Notes: generated by a model from the letters alone, not told the origin. Counted from the first letter of the stretch, positions 45,956 to 52,992 are shown. The stretch is 64,000 nucleotides of DNA from Candidatus Uhrbacteria bacterium (GCA_016188355.1 JACPHY010000016.1:66345-130344), one strand, 5' to 3'. Program-made: numbers and translations.

Positions 45956-46807
45956 ATGGCACAACCTTCCTCACGAACCTCCGATTATCGGGGGGAGGGG
46001 GGAGAGCGGGATCTCCGCCCCTACTTTTTCCGGCGAGAGGAAACCGACGTGCTCCGAGAAGCGCTTGAAGAGCTGCTCGTGCATCGGGTTGCCACGCGAT
46101 CGCAGGAGTCCGCGCGTGGATTTGAACGCGAGGTGCTTCGCGAACAGCGGCAGACGCTCTTCGCGTATGACACCGCAATGCAGCATCTCTTCCATGGGGA
46201 CGTAGATGCATTTTGTGCGGCGCTTGATGACCCGCGATTGATGCATGAGCGGCTTGCAGCAATGTACCGATCGCTGCACGAGCATCCCGGTACGGAAGAT
46301 GCGGCGTCTTGGCATACCCGGTGGCAAGAAGAGCACGCGGAGCATCATGCGTGGGGGACCGCGCAGGAGCAGAGTGCCCCACCGGAACATGTGCCTTCGC
46401 TTGACGACGACCCCGTATACGACCTCGCATTCCGATGGTCATGCCGCGTCGATCGTTGGAGTCGTCGATTATACCTCGACCAGCGCGTGCACGATCGAGA
46501 CCTTTTTCGGGTGGTGGTGAATGCCGCATTGATCCCCGCGAAAGTCGCATTCGGTTTTTCGGGAGCTCTGGATCATGATGCTTCGGGGATGGAGGCGGCG
46601 CTCATTGGGTACCGTCAGGCCGCGATTTTCCTCGTGCGCGTACTCGAGTCGCTTGCCAATTGTTACGGGAAGCGCGTGGGGCGCACGCCCATGGTGCATG
46701 AGCTGCTGGACGAGGGGCGAGAACTCCTCGCGGACATTGAGATGAAAATTGCAGAAATTGAATCCCACTTGCGACACCGTGGTCGTTCTCGACCGTCACA
46801 TGGGTAA
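45956..46807 (+). CDS. Hypothetical protein
   Basis: 283-aa ORF with helical, charged composition, followed by a terminator at 46827. No family recognised. Confidence 0.45.
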   Translation: MAQPSSRTSDYRGEGGERDLRPYFFRREETDVLREALEELLVHRVATRSQESARGFEREVLREQRQTLFAYDTAMQHLFHGDVDAFCAALDDPRLMHERLAAMYRSLHEHPGTEDAASWHTRWQEEHAEHHAWGTAQEQSAPPEHVPSLDDDPVYDLAFRWSCRVDRWSRRLYLDQRVHDRDLFRVVVNAALIPAKVAFGFSGALDHDASGMEAALIGYRQAAIFLVRVLESLANCYGKRVGRTPMVHELLDEGRELLADIEMKIAEIESHLRHRGRSRPSHG

Positions 46808-46826
46808 TTTTTGGGAGATGACGCAC

Positions 46827-46860
46827 AACGACCTGCCCATTCGGGAGGTCGTTTTGTGTT
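46827..46860 (+). terminator. Hairpin AACGACCT-N-AGGTCGTT + TTGTGTTTCATTG
   Basis: Stem plus U-rich tail 20 nt after the stop at 46807. Confidence 0.55.
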
Positions 46861-46885: not shown

Positions 46886-46930
46886 TTGACGGAGCTAGGA
46901 ATTTTGCGTTAGGATTCGGATATTCCGAAT
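46886..46930 (+). promoter_or_regulatory. Putative promoter (TTGACG -35 at 46886) and 17-bp perfect palindrome ATTCGGA-TAT-TCCGAAT (46914..46930) upstream of the Rrf2 regulator
   Basis: Seen directly. The palindrome sits between the -35 and the first gene of the isc-like operon, the position expected for an autoregulatory Rrf2/IscR-type operator. Confidence 0.45.
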
Positions 46931-46969
46931 CTCCACTTGGATTTTTTCTCGACTGGTTTGGTTGCTCCT

Positions 46970-47464
46970 ATGGAAACTCTGGAAATCCCCTCCGAGACCA
47001 CGACGCAGGCGCCTGCAGAGCTTGCTCGGTATTTTCGCATTTCGAGCCGCACGCATCACGGTATCGTGTTTGCGGCGGAGCTCGCGCGCGCGACGGCGCA
47101 CGAACGACCGGTGGCCATTGTAACCATTGCGGATCGCATGGGGCTTTCGGCGGGATATCTCGAGGAGCTTGCGCGGTGCCTTCGTGAGGGTGGCATCATT
47201 CGTGGGTCCCGAGGACGGCACGGCGGGTATCGACTCGCGAAATCTCCGGAGCGGATAACGATGGGGGAGTTAGTGCGCCTCCTCGATGGTCCGGTGCTGC
47301 TGGCGCACTGCCAGGATACGGGCATCTCCATGCCATGTCCGGCGCAGGCGTCTTGCGCGAGCCGCTTCTTCTTCCATCGTCTAAAGATGGTGATTGATCG
47401 GGAATTGGATGCGACCACACTCGCAGATCTCTTTGCTGGAGAAGGATCACATCGGAGCGTATGA
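46970..47464 (+). CDS. Rrf2-family transcriptional regulator (IscR-like, with Cys cluster)
   Basis: …ARYFRISSRTHHGIVFAAELAR…IADRMGLSAGYLEELARCLREGGIIRGSRGRHGGYRLA… with C-x5-C-x5-C near the C-terminus. Confidence 0.75.
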   Translation: METLEIPSETTTQAPAELARYFRISSRTHHGIVFAAELARATAHERPVAIVTIADRMGLSAGYLEELARCLREGGIIRGSRGRHGGYRLAKSPERITMGELVRLLDGPVLLAHCQDTGISMPCPAQASCASRFFFHRLKMVIDRELDATTLADLFAGEGSHRSV

Positions 47465-48768
47465 TGTTGCCCGAGGCTTCACCACGAAACGTTTATCTCG
47501 ATCACGCTGCAACGACACCCATGGACGCACGGGTGTTGGATGCCATGCGTCCGTATTTTATTGAGGAGTACGGGAATCCGTCGTCGCTCTATGCGGCGGG
47601 TCGACGGGCAAAGGAAGCCATGGATGATGCGCGTCGCCGGGTTGCGGCAGTGCTCCAGTGCAGCCCCGAGGAGCTGGTATTTACCGGGAGCGGAACGGAG
47701 AGTGACAACATGGCGCTGCTCGGTGTCGCGCGGCACTACCGCCCCCGAGGTAACCACGTGCTCGTTTCTGCGATTGAGCATCATGCCGTATTGCATGCGG
47801 CGGAGCAGCTCCGGAAGGAGGGATGCGCCGTCGATCTTCTGCCGGTGGATTCGTATGGTGTCCTCGATCCCCTGCAGGTGCGTTCTGCGCTTCGGCCAGA
47901 AACCTCGATTGTTTCCGTCATGCTGGCGAATAACGAAATTGGCACCATCGAACCCATCTCGGCGATTGCACGCGTCATTCGGGAATGGAAGCAGGAGCAC
48001 GATCGGAAGCCAAATGATCCGCCATTCCTCCATACGGACGCCTGTCAGGCAGCAGGTGTGTTGCCGCTCCACGTGTCGAAGCTTGGCGTCGATCTCCTCA
48101 CCATGAACGGCGCAAAGATCTACGGACCAAAAGGAACCGGATCGCTCTACGTGCGTCGCGGCGTGCGGCTGGAGCCGCTCGTATTCGGTGGTGGGCAGGA
48201 GCATCGGTTGCGTTCCGGTACGGAAAACGTGGCCGGGATTGTCGGATTTGCGACCGCGCTCGAAATCGCGGAATCCCTGCGCGTGACCGAATCGGCGCGC
48301 CTGCAGGTGCTCCGGGATGCGCTGATCACGGGGATCATGGAGCGTATTCCGAAGGTGGTGCTCAACGGCCACCCTACGGAGCGTTTGCCGAATAATGTGA
48401 ACGTGTCCGTGCTGGATATTGAGGGAGAAGCGATGCTGCTCTATCTCGACGCGCACGGCATTGCTGCGGCGACGGGATCCGCGTGTGATTCGCAATCCCT
48501 CGATCCTAGTCACGTCATCCTGGCGATTGGACGGCCGTATGAATATGCGCACGCGAGTATTCGATTCACGTTAGGGCGATCGACCACGGCGACGGATATC
48601 GCCTACGTACTCGAAGTATTGCCGGGTATCGTCGAGCAATTGCGGAAGATTTCACCGGTCCGCCTCGCGCTCCATGAAGAGCGTCGCGTGGTGGGATCAG
48701 GCGGAACCCCGGACACGTCGCGCGCGTTCGTGGGCCAAGGACGGCCACATTGGGAGGGGCGGAAATAA
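47461..48768 (+). CDS. iscS: Cysteine desulfurase (IscS/NifS class)
   Basis: …VYLDHAATTPMD…, PLP Lys in …NGAKIYGPKGTGSLYV…, active-site loop …SGSACDSQSLDPSHV…. Confidence 0.9.
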   Translation: MMLPEASPRNVYLDHAATTPMDARVLDAMRPYFIEEYGNPSSLYAAGRRAKEAMDDARRRVAAVLQCSPEELVFTGSGTESDNMALLGVARHYRPRGNHVLVSAIEHHAVLHAAEQLRKEGCAVDLLPVDSYGVLDPLQVRSALRPETSIVSVMLANNEIGTIEPISAIARVIREWKQEHDRKPNDPPFLHTDACQAAGVLPLHVSKLGVDLLTMNGAKIYGPKGTGSLYVRRGVRLEPLVFGGGQEHRLRSGTENVAGIVGFATALEIAESLRVTESARLQVLRDALITGIMERIPKVVLNGHPTERLPNNVNVSVLDIEGEAMLLYLDAHGIAAATGSACDSQSLDPSHVILAIGRPYEYAHASIRFTLGRSTTATDIAYVLEVLPGIVEQLRKISPVRLALHEERRVVGSGGTPDTSRAFVGQGRPHWEGRK

Positions 48769-48778
48769 TCATAGCCAT

Positions 48779-49456
48779 ATGGATGGGACGAAACCGGTGA
48801 CGACACGGGACATGGCGGGATCTGCCGTCGTCAATCAACATACCGGGGAGAAGTGGGTCTATTCACCCATCGTGAAAGACCATTTTTTCCATCCGCGCAA
48901 TCTCCTCCTCGAGGATCCGAAGGAGGGGGAGTTTGATGCGGTGGGCATGGTGGGGTCGCCCGCGTGTGGCGATGTGATGAAAATTTGGATTTCTGTGGAT
49001 CCGATGACCGAGCGCGTGACACAGATGAAGTGGCAGACCTTCGGATGTGGTTCCGCGATTGCATCGACGTCGATGTTCTCCGTCATGGTGACGGAAGATG
49101 GTGGCATGCGTCTCGTGGATGCGTTGCGGATTAAGCCGCAGCAGGTCATGGAGCGGCTCGCGGGATTGCCGGATCGGAAAATCCACTGCTCCGTGTTGGC
49201 GGACAAGGCATTCCGAAAAGCCGTGAATGAGTATTTTCGACTCACCGCACAACATGAGCGCGTTATGGTGGAGGGAGCGCGGGTGATGGATGCGCGACTC
49301 CACATCACCGATCACGATATCGAAGAGGCGGTGCTGGAAGGGGCGCAGACCTTGGAGGAGGTGCAAAAGAAATTGAAGGTGGGTGTCGGTGATCCGGAGG
49401 CGATACCTGCCATTGAGGAGCTTATCCGGTTCTACAAGGAAAAGTACTTTGGTTAG
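48779..49456 (+). CDS. Fe-S cluster scaffold, IscU/NifU N-terminal domain with C-terminal extension
   Basis: …VKDHFFHPRN…GSPACGDVMKIWISVD…QTFGCGSAIASTSMFSVM…KIHCSVLADKAF shows the three conserved scaffold Cys. Confidence 0.8.
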   Translation: MDGTKPVTTRDMAGSAVVNQHTGEKWVYSPIVKDHFFHPRNLLLEDPKEGEFDAVGMVGSPACGDVMKIWISVDPMTERVTQMKWQTFGCGSAIASTSMFSVMVTEDGGMRLVDALRIKPQQVMERLAGLPDRKIHCSVLADKAFRKAVNEYFRLTAQHERVMVEGARVMDARLHITDHDIEEAVLEGAQTLEEVQKKLKVGVGDPEAIPAIEELIRFYKEKYFG

Positions 49457-49466
49457 CACGGCATGC

Positions 49467-49709
49467 ATGGACACCGCATCACCCACCATTCGAGCACAAG
49501 TGGAGGCGATCCTCGAGGAGGTTCGTCCGAATCTGCGGGCGCACGAGGGCGATGCACGGCTCGCTGATGTTGATGATCAGGGGAACGTCACGCTGAAAAT
49601 TGAGGGCGCCTGTCGCGGGTGTCCGATGTCGGCGTTGACGTTCGGACTGGGCGTTGAGAAAATGATTCGGGAACGCGTGCCCGAAGTGAACGAAGTGTAC
49701 TATTCCTAG
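49467..49709 (+). CDS. NifU C-terminal (Nfu-type) domain protein
   Basis: …LEEVRPNLRAHEGDARLADVDDQGNVTLKIEGACRGCPMSALTFGLGVEKMIRERVPEV… with a CxxC motif. Confidence 0.65.
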   Translation: MDTASPTIRAQVEAILEEVRPNLRAHEGDARLADVDDQGNVTLKIEGACRGCPMSALTFGLGVEKMIRERVPEVNEVYYS

Positions 49710-49720
49710 CGCAATGTGGT

Positions 49721-49957
49721 ATGGCGAGAATCGCAAAGATCGTGATTGATCGGGATCTCTGTATTGGTGCGGCATCGTGCGTCACGATCATGCCGACCGT
49801 GTTTCAACTGGACGAGGAAAATAAGGCGGTGCTCGTGGCGGGGAGTGATGCGCAATGGGAGGATACGGAAACGGTTCTCATGGCTGCACAATCCTGTCCC
49901 ACGAAGGCGATTTTCCTCTACGACGAGGCAGGCAATCAGCTGTACCCCGAATCGTAG
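49721..49957 (+). CDS. Small ferredoxin (single [3Fe-4S]/[4Fe-4S] cluster type)
   Basis: …IVIDRDLCIGAASCVTIMPTVF…AQSCPTKAI: C-x4-C…CP pattern. Confidence 0.65.
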   Translation: MARIAKIVIDRDLCIGAASCVTIMPTVFQLDEENKAVLVAGSDAQWEDTETVLMAAQSCPTKAIFLYDEAGNQLYPES

Positions 49958-49959
49958 GT

Positions 49960-50253
49960 GTGCAGCAAATTGCAACCATCGCGGAACTCGCGCGTATTCC
50001 CTGGAAGGAGTTCGTGTATCGCGGCCGGCCGGCGATCCTTGTGCAGAGCGAGGACGAGATTCGTGCGTTCTACAATATCTGCACGCATGATGGGGGGTGT
50101 TGTGCGCTGATTGGTCGTGATTTGGTCTGCGAATCGCACGGCGCCCGTTTTAATCCCGTAAGTGGAAAGGCGCTCTCTGCGCCGGCGCCCATGGGTACCT
50201 TTCTCACAAAAATTTCTGTTCGGATCGAAATGGGCGCAGTCTTCGTTGATTAA
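49960..50253 (+). CDS. Rieske [2Fe-2S] domain protein (GTG start inferred)
   Basis: …FYNICTHDGGCCAL…CESHGARFN… CxH…CxxH Rieske ligands. No in-frame ATG after the ferredoxin stop, so GTG at 49960 is proposed. Confidence 0.55.
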   Translation: MQQIATIAELARIPWKEFVYRGRPAILVQSEDEIRAFYNICTHDGGCCALIGRDLVCESHGARFNPVSGKALSAPAPMGTFLTKISVRIEMGAVFVD

Positions 50254-50264
50254 TTAATGGTGCT

Positions 50265-50897
50265 ATGGAACATACTGCATCGAGTACTTCGTACGAGCCA
50301 AAGCCGCTCCCATTCCAGCAGAGTTTGATTGGTATTTCCGAGAAGGCGATGCAGATCCACCATGACAAGCTGTACGCGGGGTACGTGCAGAAGATGCAGG
50401 AGATCGGCGAGAAGCTCAAAGTCATGTGCGCGAACGGCGTCGGTCTCGACTCCGCGAACGCGACCTATTCCGAACTTCGTGCACTTCGGGATGGGGAGAC
50501 ATTTGCCGTGAATGGCGTCTACCTGCACGAGTACTACTTCAACGTCCTTGGTGGAAATGGGAAACCGGAGGGATCGCTCGTGGATGCGATTGTGGCGAAG
50601 TACGGGACGCTCGAGCAGTTTGTGGCATTTTTTTCCGCAACGGGAATGGCGGTTCGTGGCTGGGTGGTGCTCGCGTGGGATACGCACGCCGGTCGATTGA
50701 AAATCTACGGCGCGGATAGTCACAACCAGGGTGGCGTGTGGGGGGCGATGCCGATCATTGTGCTCGATGTGTACGAGCATGCGTATTTCATGGATTACGG
50801 ATCGGATCGAAAGAAATACATTGAGGATTTTTGGACGAACATGAATTGGGCTGCGGCCACTGCGGTGTACGAGCGTGCGCGGGGGACGGTGCGGTAG
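50265..50897 (+). CDS. sodA: Fe/Mn superoxide dismutase
   Basis: …IHHDKLYAGYV…, …WGWVVLAWD…, …VLDVYEHAYFMDYG… metal ligands H, H, D, H present. Confidence 0.9.
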   Translation: MEHTASSTSYEPKPLPFQQSLIGISEKAMQIHHDKLYAGYVQKMQEIGEKLKVMCANGVGLDSANATYSELRALRDGETFAVNGVYLHEYYFNVLGGNGKPEGSLVDAIVAKYGTLEQFVAFFSATGMAVRGWVVLAWDTHAGRLKIYGADSHNQGGVWGAMPIIVLDVYEHAYFMDYGSDRKKYIEDFWTNMNWAAATAVYERARGTVR

Positions 50898-50971
50898 CCC
50901 ATGTGGTGGGAGGATCGTACGGGGTGCCGGGGTGTGGTAGACTGAGAAAGTCTCTTGTTTCCCATAACCAT

Positions 50972-51508
50972 ATGATCCACGTCGGTCAATCAGCTCCTGC
51001 GTTTGCGCGGGTCACGGCGTATCAGAGGAATTATGAGGGATTCCGGCAGGTGAGTCTCGCGGATTATCGCGGAAAATGGGTAGTGCTATTCTTCTACCCG
51101 CGCGATTTTACGTTTATTTGCCCAACGGAGATTGAGGGATTTGCGCAGCAAGAGGAGGCATTCCGAAAGCTCGGCACGGAAATTCTTGCGGCGTCCACCG
51201 ACTCGGAATGGAGTCATCAGGCATGGTTCACCACCGATCCACGACTCCAGCAGGTCGCGTACCCGGTGCTTGCCGATACGAATCATCGCCTCGCGCGTGA
51301 GTACGATGTGTACAATGAGGAAGCGGGTCTTGCCGAGCGCGGGCTCTTCATTATCGATCCACAGGGAGTGGTGCAGTATGCGTTGGTGAGCGCGGGCGCA
51401 GTGGGTCGTTCGGTGGAGGAGACATTGCGCGTCGTGCAGGCGCTGCAGAGCGGCGAACTCTGTCCCATCAATTGGCGACCAGGGCAAAAGACACTGGGGA
51501 AGGCGTAG
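50972..51508 (+). CDS. 2-Cys peroxiredoxin (AhpC/Tsa family)
   Basis: …LADYRGKWVVLFFYPRDFTFICPTEI… peroxidatic Cys motif. A resolving Cys is present near the C-terminus. Confidence 0.85.
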   Translation: MIHVGQSAPAFARVTAYQRNYEGFRQVSLADYRGKWVVLFFYPRDFTFICPTEIEGFAQQEEAFRKLGTEILAASTDSEWSHQAWFTTDPRLQQVAYPVLADTNHRLAREYDVYNEEAGLAERGLFIIDPQGVVQYALVSAGAVGRSVEETLRVVQALQSGELCPINWRPGQKTLGKA

Positions 51509-51536
51509 GTGCATTGCGAATATACGGATCCGTTTC

Positions 51537-51764
51537 GTGATGTTGCAGGAGCATGCATATATGGATCCCTACGAAAAGTACATCGCATCCAATCCGTCGA
51601 AGTGTATCGTTTGTGGCAGCGCCTTCGCCTCGGAGCGATCGGCGATTACGAAGGAGTTCACTGGAGAGTACTACTCGTTCTGTTCGTCGAGCTGTCTCGG
51701 GACGTTTGAGGCAGATCCAGAAAAGTTCGTGCGATTTGAGGAGGAAGAAGAGAACGGTCACTAG
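51537..51764 (+). CDS. TRASH/YHS-like metal-binding domain protein (75 aa)
   Basis: C-x2-C-x22-C-x3-C (CIVCG…FCSSSC) with an acidic C-terminal tail. Confidence 0.55.
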   Translation: MMLQEHAYMDPYEKYIASNPSKCIVCGSAFASERSAITKEFTGEYYSFCSSSCLGTFEADPEKFVRFEEEEENGH

Positions 51765-51851
51765 TGGGGGCGCATGTGGAGGAATGCCCTTGCATCATCA
51801 CTGCGCCGCAGCGTACGCTGAATGCTGGTCCATGTAACGTGTAACGTGTCT

Positions 51852-52091
51852 ATGGCACCGCAGATTACTGTTTACTCGACTCCGTCCTGTCCGTATTGCA
51901 AGCTGGCAAAAGAATATTTGCACGCGAAGAATTTCGCATACACAGAAATCGATGTCGCGGCCGATTCGGAGAAGGCCGAAGAAATGATTCAGAAATCCGG
52001 TCAAATGGGTGTGCCGGTCATCGATATCGGGGGTACGATCATTGTGGGTTTCGACAAGCCGAAGATGAACGCAGCGCTCGGCATTGCATGA
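51852..52091 (+). CDS. Glutaredoxin (CPYC, NrdH/Grx-like)
   Basis: …ITVYSTPSCPYCKLAKEYL… and …GVPVIDIGG… thioredoxin-fold motifs. Confidence 0.75.
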   Translation: MAPQITVYSTPSCPYCKLAKEYLHAKNFAYTEIDVAADSEKAEEMIQKSGQMGVPVIDIGGTIIVGFDKPKMNAALGIA

Positions 52092-52111: not shown

Positions 52112-52142
52112 ACGCCACCGGCGATATGATCGCCGGTGGCGT
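52112..52142. terminator. Bidirectional hairpin ACGCCACCGGCGAT-atg-ATCGCCGGTGGCGT
   Basis: Perfect 14-bp inverted repeat between convergent genes (+ stop at 52091, - stop at 52150). Confidence 0.55.
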
Positions 52143-52149
52143 GGTGTTG

Positions 52150-52992
52150 CTATGGGACGGGTTGCGCGGCGGCGACCTTCATGAACGGCGCGACGTCGTG
52201 CGCGATGATCGCGGCGAGTTCCATGAGGCAGCGCGCACCGGCGACCTGGTCGCGATCCGAAAGTTCTTGGGGCGCGAGCGCAATACCCGCCCGAACCTGA
52301 ATGCGCCAGAGATCTTCGCGGAGGCGATCGACGGATCCAGGCATATCTCGGAGATGCTCCTGGGAGAAGAAGCGGCGTTCCCATTCGTCATCCGCGGTCA
52401 TTTGCTGCCAGCCATCCCACGTCAGCGCTCCGGTCCCGGTGCGGAGGTGTGGGGAGTTTTCGCGGAGTGCATCGAAGAGCATGGGGATCGCCATGAGCAT
52501 GCGGTGCGATGTGAGGAATTCGTAGTACCCGATGCGCATCGCAAGGAGCGCGAGCAGTTGTCGGAGGTCACGATGGTGGGAGGTGTGTCGCTCGTGCGTG
52601 CATGCGATGAATTCCGCCAATCGATGGAGATCCTGCCCGTTGAGGCGTGACACGTGTCGGGGATTGCTCGTGAAAAAGACGAGGAGCTTGGTGCTGGCGT
52701 TCATGTGCTGGAGCAGCGATTTGTCGGTCGCGAATTGCCGAACGAGCACTTGCCGTGCGAGGAGACGTTGTTCCTCGTCCCAGAGTGCGGGCGTTGCTTG
52801 GCGCGTTTCGTCACCGACGCGCATGAGGAGCGTCATGCTCCCATCGTCCTTTCGGCGTCCGATCTGCATGAGGAGTCCCGCGACGATGTCGTGGGGTGTT
52901 GCGGGGTTTTCGAGCATTGCGGCCAATTCGGGGATGGTCAGTGTCGGGCGGGTGGTGCGTGCATCGGATGATGACATCGTCGTTTCGGCCAT
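52150..52992 (-). CDS. Hypothetical protein (280 aa)
   Basis: ORF with plausible composition flanked by hairpins. No family recognised. Confidence 0.45.
   Translation of the reverse strand: MAETTMSSSDARTTRPTLTIPELAAMLENPATPHDIVAGLLMQIGRRKDDGSMTLLMRVGDETRQATPALWDEEQRLLARQVLVRQFATDKSLLQHMNASTKLLVFFTSNPRHVSRLNGQDLHRLAEFIACTHERHTSHHRDLRQLLALLAMRIGYYEFLTSHRMLMAIPMLFDALRENSPHLRTGTGALTWDGWQQMTADDEWERRFFSQEHLRDMPGSVDRLREDLWRIQVRAGIALAPQELSDRDQVAGARCLMELAAIIAHDVAPFMKVAAAQPVP

Follow-up and report, generated by a model that had tools for sequence, protein, structure and literature searches.

The only Fe-S cluster assembly genes of a Candidatus Uhrbacteria bacterium lie together with oxidative-stress defence genes in one block of ten co-directional genes (46970-52091), and the best reading of this block is an IscR-type autorepressed operon which captured ROS defence. 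The window analysed is a stretch of 64,000 nucleotides, and the host is a groundwater bacterium with a small genome of 1.06 Mb. The block encodes, in order, an Rrf2 regulator, NifS/IscS, IscU, Nfu, a 3-Cys ferredoxin (Fdx), a Rieske protein, Fe/Mn-SOD, a 2-Cys peroxiredoxin (Prx), a YHS/TRASH protein, and a YruB/Cp9-type glutaredoxin-like protein (Grx) (Table 1). An earlier note on this DNA had described such a same-strand cluster, and all ten domain assignments were upheld by Pfam and NCBIfam profile searches. It is reasonably probable that these genes make up one operon for housekeeping Fe-S assembly that regulates itself, and that the ROS-defence genes have come under the same control.

Table 1. 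Features of the Fe-S/antioxidant block and its flanks, in window coordinates.
Feature	Position	Strand	Remarks
Terminator-like hairpin with U-rich tail	46820..46860	+	5' boundary; after upstream 283-aa gene
Sigma-70-like promoter TTGACG-18-TAGGAT	46886..46915	+	same -35/-10 positions in relatives, TTGACA-17-TACAGT
CTAGGAATTT half-site in promoter spacer	46895..46904	+	kept in relatives (MAFFT alignment)
Perfect 8-3-8 palindrome GATTCGGATATTCCGAATC, candidate operator	46913..46931	.	overlaps -10 hexamer and predicted +1
Decayed orthologue ATATTCCGA-N7-CTTGGATTT of family operator	46920..46944	.	MAFFT alignment
Rrf2-family regulator, IscR-like	46970..47464	+	C114/C123/C129 invariant
NifS/IscS-type cysteine desulfurase	47461..48768	+	start overlaps Rrf2 stop by 4 bp
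IscU/NifU N-terminal scaffold	48779..49456	+	tail Cys-less and weakly BFD-like
Nfu (NifU C-terminal domain)	49467..49709	+	CxxC motif
Single-cluster ferredoxin, three Cys	49721..49957	+	C-x2-A-x2-C...CP; Fer4_13, Fer4_15
Small Rieske [2Fe-2S] protein	49960..50253	+	CTH...CESH; Pfam
Fe/Mn superoxide dismutase	50265..50897	+	
Typical 2-Cys peroxiredoxin, AhpC/Prx1 type	50972..51508	+	FICPTE, ELCPINW
YHS/TRASH small metal-binding protein	51537..51764	+	CxxC...CxxxC
Candidate secondary promoter TTGCAT-18-TACGCT	51790..51819	+	ahead of grx
Glutaredoxin-like redoxin, YruB/Cp9 family	51852..52091	+	CPYC
GC-rich hairpin, 14-bp stem	52112..52142	.	3' boundary; between grx and convergent downstream gene

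The desulfurase is a class-V aminotransferase (PF00266, 249 bits) whose nearest NCBIfam model is NifS (TIGR03402, 483 bits, under the cut-off of 530.75), and its sequence shows the SAC loop as well as the (A/S/H)K motif with its Lys. It is the only cysteine desulfurase in the genome, and no SufB was found there; thus, the block represents the genome's housekeeping Fe-S machinery. The scaffold (NifU_N, PF01592, 120 bits) has three ligand Cys in the motifs GSPACGD, FGCGSA, and HCSVLA, and Nfu matches the NifU C-terminal domain with 79.5 bits. Rather than a one-polypeptide, three-domain NifU with a Cys-bearing central [2Fe-2S] domain, the block has these parts split over two genes, and the central BFD-like stretch of IscU is sub-threshold (22.1 vs 26 bits) with zero Cys. 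In addition, none of the ten genes matched HscA, HscB, or IscA of the canonical ISC system in Pfam or NCBIfam. The three-Cys ferredoxin, kept next to IscU/Nfu class-wide, would be of the [3Fe-4S] type and probably donates electrons for cluster assembly. The Rieske protein (33.8 bits, Pfam) stands at the junction of two modules in this genome only; it is missing in the related genomes G002 and G004, in which no more than about 20 bp lie between Fdx and SOD.

Among the antioxidant genes, SOD has a clear Sod_Fe_C domain (89 bits) and a marginal Sod_Fe_N domain (26.3 vs a cut-off of 27), and the motifs IHHDKLY, LHEYYF, and DVYEHAYF presumably hold the metal ligands, as assigned from E. coli MnSOD. 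Prx belongs to the AhpC-TSA family (PF00578, 129 bits), with the peroxidatic Cys in FICPTE and the resolving Cys in ELCPINW. The YHS protein (TRASH clan, 32.8 bits in Pfam) is a possible metal chaperone. The Grx-like redoxin, with its CPYC motif, scores 101.1 bits against the YruB family model TIGR02196, over the cut-off of 88.55; Cp9-type redoxins of this kind reduce Prx, as in the cp34-cp9-cp20 operon (PMC3720550). No TrxR-like reductase gene lies in the block, and two such genes are located on other contigs (C3:24133-25026, 388 bits, over the cut-off, and C11:83298-84188).

The block is compact and clearly delimited. With start codons adjusted to the domain alignments, the intergenic gaps are, in gene order, -4, 10, 10, 11, -4/+2, 11, 74, 28, and 57-87 bp. 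Overlap or a spacing of at most 11 bp thus prevails throughout from Rrf2 to SOD, and gaps this small cannot accommodate a separate promoter for SOD behind the Fe-S genes. Both boundary hairpins are far more stable than expected by chance (5': -27.2 kcal/mol, z = -3.96; 3': -35.2 kcal/mol, z = -4.85; 0/200 shuffles as stable in either case). Inside the block, no strong hairpins were found, the internal gaps lack structure (z -0.33 and +0.37), and terminator-like matches do not exceed shuffle expectation (8 vs 6.1 +/- 2.8). The single transcription unit proposed in the earlier note is therefore backed by anatomy, namely a promoter at the front, hairpins only at the ends, and tiny gaps, but qualified by a promoter-like site before grx. 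This site may be a secondary promoter; a similar TTGCGT-16-TACACT occurs at the same place in G004, while G003 has none. The SOD-Prx gap contains an extended -10-like TGgTAGACT. Both the 74-bp SOD-Prx gap and the 57-87-bp TRASH-Grx gap could hold promoters, which counts against a single operon.

The region ahead of the Rrf2 gene has a conserved architecture: in at least six families, it holds a promoter whose -10 hexamer is overlapped or immediately followed by a 25-bp palindrome. The coordinate from which the cluster was previously counted, 46886, is that of the -35 hexamer of the TTGACG-18-TAGGAT site. In relatives, the family operator is AAATCCTAG-N7-CTAGGATTT (consensus AATYCCTAS-N7-STAGGRATT), and the motif is present in essentially one copy per genome. 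The operator region of the window is the outlier, since it retains only one intact half-site plus a decayed copy of this 9-7-9 palindrome, and the pattern CTAGG[AG]A?TTT has only two occurrences in the whole genome. What had been noticed before as an operator-like site is a different element, a 17-bp palindrome, ATTCGGATATTCCGAAT, at 46914-46930, which grows to the 19-bp 8-3-8 palindrome at 46913-46931. It is real and unique: a genome-wide search for further copies, which the earlier note had suggested, returned only this one in 1.06 Mb, and the next-best site, within a long open reading frame, differs at 3 positions. However, it is not the conserved operator, since its half-site geometry and sequence are unlike those of the 9-7-9 palindrome that relatives carry. 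The MAFFT alignment revealed no 19-bp palindrome at that position in relatives, and the element is lineage-specific. Because the genome as a whole has 0.03 perfect inverted repeats with arms of at least 8 bp per 60 bp, the 8-3-8 palindrome alone is only modestly improbable. The idea of a wider oxidative-stress regulon has to be abandoned, as neither the palindrome nor the operator motif has further copies in the genome.

The regulator itself is a confident Rrf2 protein (PF02082, 94.3 bits vs a cut-off of 30; TIGR00738, 81.5 vs 73.3). Its top structural match in the PDB is chain 4CIC (E 4e-20), which we take to be the C92/101/107S mutant of Thermincola potens IscR. The cysteine spacing C-x8-C-x5-C is identical to that of T. 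potens IscR, and seven orthologues from several families all retain C114, C123, and C129, three positions that align exactly with the three Ser of 4CIC. The three cysteines would hold an Fe-S cluster. Moreover, the Rrf2 gene is the first gene of the Fe-S block and overlaps the desulfurase gene by 4 bp, an order kept class-wide. The curated IscR equivalog cut-offs are not reached (TIGR02010, 59 vs 207.55 bits; NF008110, 48.7 vs 275); this shortfall and the decayed operator in the window both count against the single-operon reading. An RsrR-type regulator was considered and rejected, since RsrR chains match at only E 3-4e-8, compared with 4e-20 for T. potens IscR, and the protein has a three-Cys triad instead. 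Hence, of the "IscR/RsrR-like" label originally proposed, the IscR-like part stands (three Cys, E 4e-20) and the RsrR-like part falls (E 4e-8).

One may argue that this Rrf2 protein is a CymR-like cysteine switch, a thiol-based redox switch, or an RsrR-type switch, and that the operon tracks cysteine, thiol, or redox state rather than cluster occupancy. CymR is indeed the second-best NCBIfam model (79.7 bits), and CymR structures rank third and fourth in the PDB search. In addition, E. coli IscR has a conserved His 3 residues after the third Cys, which is absent here according to the orthologue alignment. The 8-3-8 palindrome would also fit inside the 11-3-11 format of RsrR class 1 sites (PMC5015018). 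Nevertheless, such a switch is very unlikely in view of the invariant cysteines matching the Ser positions of 4CIC, the far weaker PDB match to RsrR, and the position of the gene at the head of the sole Fe-S assembly operon, like that of iscR. Furthermore, CymR to our knowledge lacks the three-Cys triad, and the ligand set of RsrR is Cys2/Glu/His.

The order Rrf2-IscS-IscU-Nfu-Fdx-SOD-Prx-TRASH-Grx, without Rieske, is kept in G003, G004, and a metagenome contig (L053), and in the third sister genome, G002, as far as the contig end; the YHS/TRASH gene is retained in G003 and G004. Outside this family, SOD is immediately preceded on its own strand by Fe-S genes (IscS, IscU, or Fdx) at 12 of the 43 SOD-orthologue loci; among these are G053, which reads Rrf2-IscS-IscU-SOD-Prx, and loci having a different SufS/SufU-like system. 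A co-directional SOD-Prx pair occurs more widely (26/43 class loci), mostly without nearby Fe-S genes and often with Grx nearby, usually on the opposite strand, and it is a mobile two-gene module across the class. The "supercluster" of the earlier note is thus partly sustained: the Fe-S/SOD-Prx linkage is kept in the family and recurs in others, but it is a junction of two modules, of which Rrf2-IscS-IscU-Nfu-Fdx is class-wide and SOD-Prx(-Grx) stands alone in most relatives. Since SOD-Prx is found there without the Rrf2 operator, the two modules clearly need no shared control to function.

These observations lend some weight to another explanation, in which two or more units are merely adjacent through compaction or weak selection: Rrf2 to Fdx/Rieske, SOD-Prx-TRASH with its own promoter, and grx alone. 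The independence of SOD-Prx and the usual orientation of Grx at class SOD loci agree with it, as do the single-copy operator motif, which is absent from unlinked SOD loci, and the promoter-like sequences before grx (in the window and G004) and in the SOD-Prx gap. Insertions between Fdx and SOD mark the seam; Rieske is the insert in this genome, and in G003 it is an unknown ORF. We consider this explanation rather unlikely, however, because Rieske and SOD are 11 bp apart and Fdx and SOD are similarly close in G002 and G004; with junction gaps so short, a SOD promoter would have to sit within coding sequence. The search for terminator-like structures inside the block was negative as well. Moreover, the same-strand Fe-S/SOD join recurs in several families with two desulfurase/scaffold types, which argues for selection on co-expression.

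Under the preferred reading of an IscR-type autorepressed operon, the promoter at 46886-46915 probably gives rise to a single transcript of ~5.2 kb that starts at ~46922 and runs as far as the hairpin at 52112-52142. The Rrf2 cysteines would receive their Fe-S cluster from the operon's own NifS/IscU/Nfu, and the holo form, as the putative repressor in place of the apo form, would bind DNA over -10/+1, at the 19-bp palindrome, CTAGGAATTT-type half-sites, or both. A drop in cluster supply, or destruction of the sensor cluster by superoxide or peroxide, would lift repression, and more assembly machinery would be made together with SOD, Prx, and the Cp9-type redoxin. In E. coli, superoxide makes the IscR cluster less stable, and PiscR is up about 3-fold in a sodAsodB mutant (PMC12594620). 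Clearance of oxidants by SOD, Prx, and the redoxin would then allow the sensor to be re-loaded, closing the loop. The Grx-like redoxin of the operon may recycle Prx, drawing electrons from the product of one of the two TrxR-like genes elsewhere.

In comparison with known systems, the apparent Fe-S/antioxidant operon is no new kind of system but a neat, conserved version of an established design. It resembles the iscRSU arrangement of T. potens and other Clostridia, in which an Rrf2 regulator comes first, followed by the cysteine desulfurase and the IscU scaffold; the best solved-structure match and the cysteine spacing point the same way, and autoregulation through a promoter palindrome would be shared. 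The block here, however, continues with Nfu, the 3-Cys ferredoxin, Rieske, SOD, Prx, YHS/TRASH, and Grx, and its clade has its own operator consensus. As in iscRSUA-hscBA-fdx-iscX of E. coli, the Rrf2 gene heads the assembly operon and Fe-S-sensing autorepression is likely, and oxidative stress would be coupled to Fe-S supply as in the E. coli IscR regulon (PMC12594620). In E. coli, IscR exerts this coupling in trans, at suf and other promoters, whereas here SOD and Prx lie inside the operon and the genome has no other target sites. Also unlike E. coli, the cluster is without HscBA, IscA, and a [2Fe-2S] Fdx, and its Rrf2 protein falls well under the IscR equivalog cut-off. The NifS-NifU housekeeping system of the Helicobacter pylori type offers another parallel, with a NifS-closest desulfurase, NifU-type domains, and the role of the only Fe-S assembly machinery in a small genome that lacks SufB, but here NifU is divided between two genes, IscU, whose BFD-like tail has no Cys, and Nfu, and all scores are below equivalog cut-offs. 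The antioxidant part recalls cp34-cp9-cp20 of Clostridium pasteurianum in pairing a 2-Cys Prx with a small YruB/Cp9 Grx-like redoxin (TIGR02196), although the TrxR-like reductase is outside the cluster here and a YHS/TRASH gene lies between Prx and redoxin. Finally, the co-directional SOD-Prx pair is that of the CPR/Patescibacteria SOD-Prx(-Grx) cassette; a minority of other families show partial fusion of this cassette with Fe-S genes, whereas the family of the window fuses SOD-Prx behind the Fe-S genes with Grx co-directional.

Ten consecutive same-strand genes, from an Rrf2 regulator to a glutaredoxin-like protein, form a compact block in the window, and the list of the earlier note, which had put Fe-S assembly and oxidative-stress defence together here, was matched throughout in Pfam and NCBIfam. 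Once the start codons are set by the domain alignments, the intergenic gaps in gene order are -4, 10, 10, 11, about 0, 11, 74, 28 and 57-87 bp. Because the ferredoxin has only three cysteines, we infer that it is of the [3Fe-4S] type. In the SOD, IHHDKLY takes the place of the HHxKHH that is usual in Fe/Mn SODs, and the second ligand motif is LHEYYF. The window spans C17:66345-130344 of a 1.06-Mb genome, G000 (60% GC, 19 contigs, 92.5% complete). No SufB was found in G000 and there is only one cysteine desulfurase, so the operon is its housekeeping Fe-S machinery.

Features of the ten-gene block and its flanks, with positions in the window
Feature	Position	Strand	Basis	Remarks
Gene of 283-aa protein	45956-46807			
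Hairpin and U-tract	46820-46860			z = -3.96
Promoter-like site	46886-46915			TTGACG-18-TAGGAT
Spacer half-site	46895-46904			
8-3-8 palindrome	46913-46931			
Rrf2 regulator	46970-47464	+	Pfam/NCBIfam	
NifS/IscS-type cysteine desulfurase	47461-48768	+	Pfam/NCBIfam	
IscU/NifU_N scaffold	48779-49456	+	Pfam/NCBIfam	C-terminal stretch weakly BFD-like, without Cys
Nfu	49467-49709	+	Pfam/NCBIfam	
Fer4_13 ferredoxin (Fdx)	49721-49957	+	Pfam/NCBIfam	C-x2-A-x2-C...CP
Small Rieske protein	49960-50253	+	Pfam/NCBIfam	
Fe/Mn SOD	50265-50897	+	Pfam/NCBIfam	
Typical 2-Cys peroxiredoxin (Prx)	50972-51508	+	Pfam/NCBIfam	
YHS/TRASH-clan protein	51537-51764	+	Pfam/NCBIfam	
Second promoter-like site	51790-51819			TTGCAT-18-TACGCT
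CPYC glutaredoxin-like protein (Grx)	51852-52091	+	Above curated cut-off of YruB family (TIGR02196)	
Hairpin, 14-bp stem	52112-52142			z = -4.85

The block is bounded on both sides: a hairpin with a U-tract ends the upstream 283-aa gene, and a second hairpin lies between grx and the convergent gene. Inside the block, terminators do not exceed expectation, since a consensus scan returned 8 terminator-like sites against 6.1 +/- 2.8 expected, all within long ORFs, and the two longest internal gaps fold no more strongly than shuffles. One promoter-like site precedes the Rrf2 gene; another precedes grx, has a counterpart in the same-family genome G004 and none in G003, and may give grx extra independent expression. 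Judged by this anatomy, the block is probably one transcription unit. The 283-aa protein, which has no Pfam family and whose gene in the window is separated from the operon by the terminator-like hairpin, is conserved immediately before the operon in G002 and G004 and on two metagenome contigs, L053 and L054 (42-56% identity). An Rfam scan also matched P17, a Pseudomonas sRNA, at window 52113-52301 on the minus strand (25.1 bits versus a gathering score of 45); this sub-threshold match shares sequence with the terminator hairpin and with the convergent gene's 3' end, and chance is its likeliest explanation.

A search with a four-sequence Rrf2 alignment gave two genome loci and three metagenome loci, and gene orders in relatives were established by mapping the ten proteins onto fetched regions with tblastn. 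All genes except the Rieske gene occur in the order Rrf2-IscS-IscU-Nfu-Fdx-SOD-Prx-TRASH-Grx in G003 and G004, both from the window's family, and on L053, a 13-kb contig; the same-family genome G002 keeps this order up to its contig end, and L054 breaks off in IscU. In other families of the class, only Rrf2-IscS-IscU-(Nfu)-Fdx is kept. SOD was found in 198 of the 301 genomes of the class, and 43 orthologous SOD loci from outside the family (47-78% identity) were compared: Prx directly follows SOD on the same strand in 26 of the 43, and IscS, IscU or Fdx directly precedes it on the same strand in 12. These 12 include Rrf2-IscS-IscU-SOD-Prx (G053), IscS-IscU-SOD-Prx (G222) and IscS-SOD-Prx (G022), as well as three loci with a different, SufS/SufU-like upstream pair (25-29% identity). 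By these counts, two modules meet in the cluster, and their junction has arisen or been kept in several families; the most elaborate version is that of the window's family. The seam between the modules is the Fdx-SOD junction, where Fdx abuts SOD in G002 and G004, the Rieske gene intervenes in G000, and an ORF without assignment intervenes in G003. The SOD-Prx-redoxin-containing Fe-S operon is conserved in one CPR family, with partial forms recurring across the class. That SOD-Prx behaves as a module in the class favours a rival reading, in which the block consists of adjacent units that are transcribed separately; against it, the genes at the junction lie no more than about 20 bp apart and the same-strand fusion recurs, which leaves a single transcription unit the likelier reading.

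The G003-type operon, represented by L053, keeps its core gene order despite extra genes at two junctions: Nfu and Fdx are separated by an MNT-like nucleotidyltransferase gene (PF01909) and an uncharacterised ORF of 123 aa (L053 9086-9827), Fdx and SOD by an uncharacterised ORF of 131 aa (L053 10206-10601). Its IscU gene (L053 6861-8705, same as G003:C62) encodes 614 aa in one ORF, about 375 of them in an in-frame insert that begins CLAPDT, ends VHN and is followed by CGDV, which places the insert at the first cluster-ligand Cys. The Hint and LAGLIDADG domains of the insert suggest that this Fe-S scaffold carries an intein with a homing endonuclease.

The best solved-structure match of the Rrf2 protein is 4CIC (E 4e-20), which we take to be the C92/101/107S mutant of Thermincola potens IscR. 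The three cysteines of the window protein align exactly with the three serines of this chain, and they (C114, C123 and C129, spaced C-x8-C-x5-C) are invariant in seven Rrf2 orthologues, which makes a regulator that does not sense Fe-S very improbable. Weaker matches are CymR, E. coli IscR, NsrR and RsrR, and the protein falls far below the NCBIfam IscR equivalog cut-offs. We would call this Fe-S-sensing candidate IscR-like, of the Gram-positive type, and neither an IscR equivalog nor RsrR-like; the RsrR-like reading of the earlier note was rejected on similarity (E 4e-8 for RsrR versus 4e-20 for 4CIC) and on the three-Cys ligand pattern.

The palindrome that the earlier note described as operator-like is real; it lengthens to 8-3-8 and takes in the end of the -10 hexamer together with the predicted start site. 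As G000 holds 0.03 perfect inverted repeats with arms of at least 8 bp per 60 bp, the palindrome on its own is only modestly unlikely. More can be learnt from relatives: in G002, G003/L053, G004 and L054, the promoter reads TTGACA, N3, CTAGGAATTT, N3-4, TACAGT, N3-5, AAATCCTAG-N7-CTAGGATTT. The 25-bp palindrome of this layout, with the consensus AATYCCTAS-N7-STAGGRATT (AAATCCTAGGATAGAACTAGGATTT in G003), also precedes the Rrf2 gene in four other families (G040, G053, G024 and G011), where it covers the -10 or follows it closely, and it is essentially single-copy per genome. A 25-bp site of the 11-3-11 type is described as characteristic of full Rrf2 sites (PMC5015018). The window is an outlier among its relatives: it retains the spacer half-site CTAGGAATTT, a pattern that occurs only twice in the genome, and at the orthologous palindrome position it has ATATTCCGA-N7-CTTGGATTT, with both CTAG cores lost. 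The 8-3-8 palindrome consists of the old left half-site and sequence overlapping the -10, and its half-site spacing is unlike that of the family operator. When recognition helix and operator were compared for co-variation, the helix read SAGY in the window protein and SE[GK]Y in relatives, but SQRY in G011, which has the standard operator.

Genome-wide searches of G000 returned no further copy of the 8-3-8 palindrome and no match to the family operator at up to 3 mismatches, so the wider regulon implied by the earlier note finds no counterpart in either motif. The only near-copy of the palindrome, at C17:136696 with 3 mismatches, falls within a long ORF and was dismissed as chance. Second-site operator matches in G021, G011 and G222 adjoin unrelated or unknown genes and were not taken as regulon members. 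In G021, whose isc promoter is without the standard operator, a perfect palindrome resembling the Rrf2 operator, AATCCCCACGCAATGCGTGGGGATT (G021:C46:7357-7381; positions 2858-2882 of the fetched locus L103), lies close to a contig end, next to genes of unknown function and apart from the isc operon. The regulator of the window looks like a local autoregulator of a single operon rather than the head of a regulon.

The observation of the earlier note is thus confirmed, and its interpretation is supported in part, for a single operon but not for a wider regulon or an RsrR-like sensor: the locus is best described, from sequence, as a putative IscR-type autoregulated Fe-S operon with an absorbed SOD-Prx-redoxin cassette. 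The operon's own NifS, IscU and Nfu would load a cluster onto the Rrf2 protein, and holo-Rrf2 would act as a repressor over -10/+1. If clusters run short or oxidants attack, the sensor would be emptied and the operon de-repressed, yielding more assembly proteins along with SOD, Prx and redoxin; once these had removed the cause, the sensor could be loaded again. In E. coli, the IscR cluster is destabilised by superoxide, and PiscR is up about 3-fold in a sodAsodB mutant (PMC12594620). A wider reading, possible but less likely than not, is that an ancient single-target IscR-like regulator has a dedicated operator, AATYCCTAS-N7-STAGGRATT, in this class of ultra-small bacteria, and that the Fe-S operon took up the SOD-Prx cassette, itself mobile, several times over, and did so behind two different desulfurase/scaffold types. 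Such an operon would be a homeostat complete in itself, since any oxidant that breaks the sensor cluster would switch on the enzymes that clear it. The window's lineage would be caught in operator turnover, its former palindrome having decayed while a perfect one arose 7 bp upstream, and regulator and operator would be seen rewiring in nature.

Most CPR/Patescibacteria have not been cultured, and the group is commonly regarded as anaerobic fermenters; to our knowledge almost nothing is known of their gene regulation; a literature search on CPR, SOD and cysteine desulfurase found nothing relevant. In Proteobacteria the link between IscR and oxidative stress is well known, and the locus reveals no new biochemical or regulatory principle. 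It does give a regulator-operator pair testable in E. coli or in vitro, and an oxygen-protection hypothesis in which a 1-Mb genome protects its single Fe-S system by expressing SOD and Prx from that system's own autoregulated transcript. Moreover, the class offers unlinked, partly fused and fully fused versions, a series for operon growth by module capture.

Two thioredoxin-reductase-like genes lie on other contigs of G000, the main one at C3:24133-25026. No clear small thioredoxin was found in this genome, whose only thioredoxin-domain match (C3:20980-21234) is inside a 434-aa ORF 3 kb from the main reductase gene, so among small disulfide reductants the operon's glutaredoxin-like redoxin may be the principal one. 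In the cp34-cp9-cp20 operon of Clostridium pasteurianum, a glutaredoxin-like redoxin reduces Prx (PMC3720550), and the window likewise has a YruB/Cp9-family redoxin near a 2-Cys Prx.
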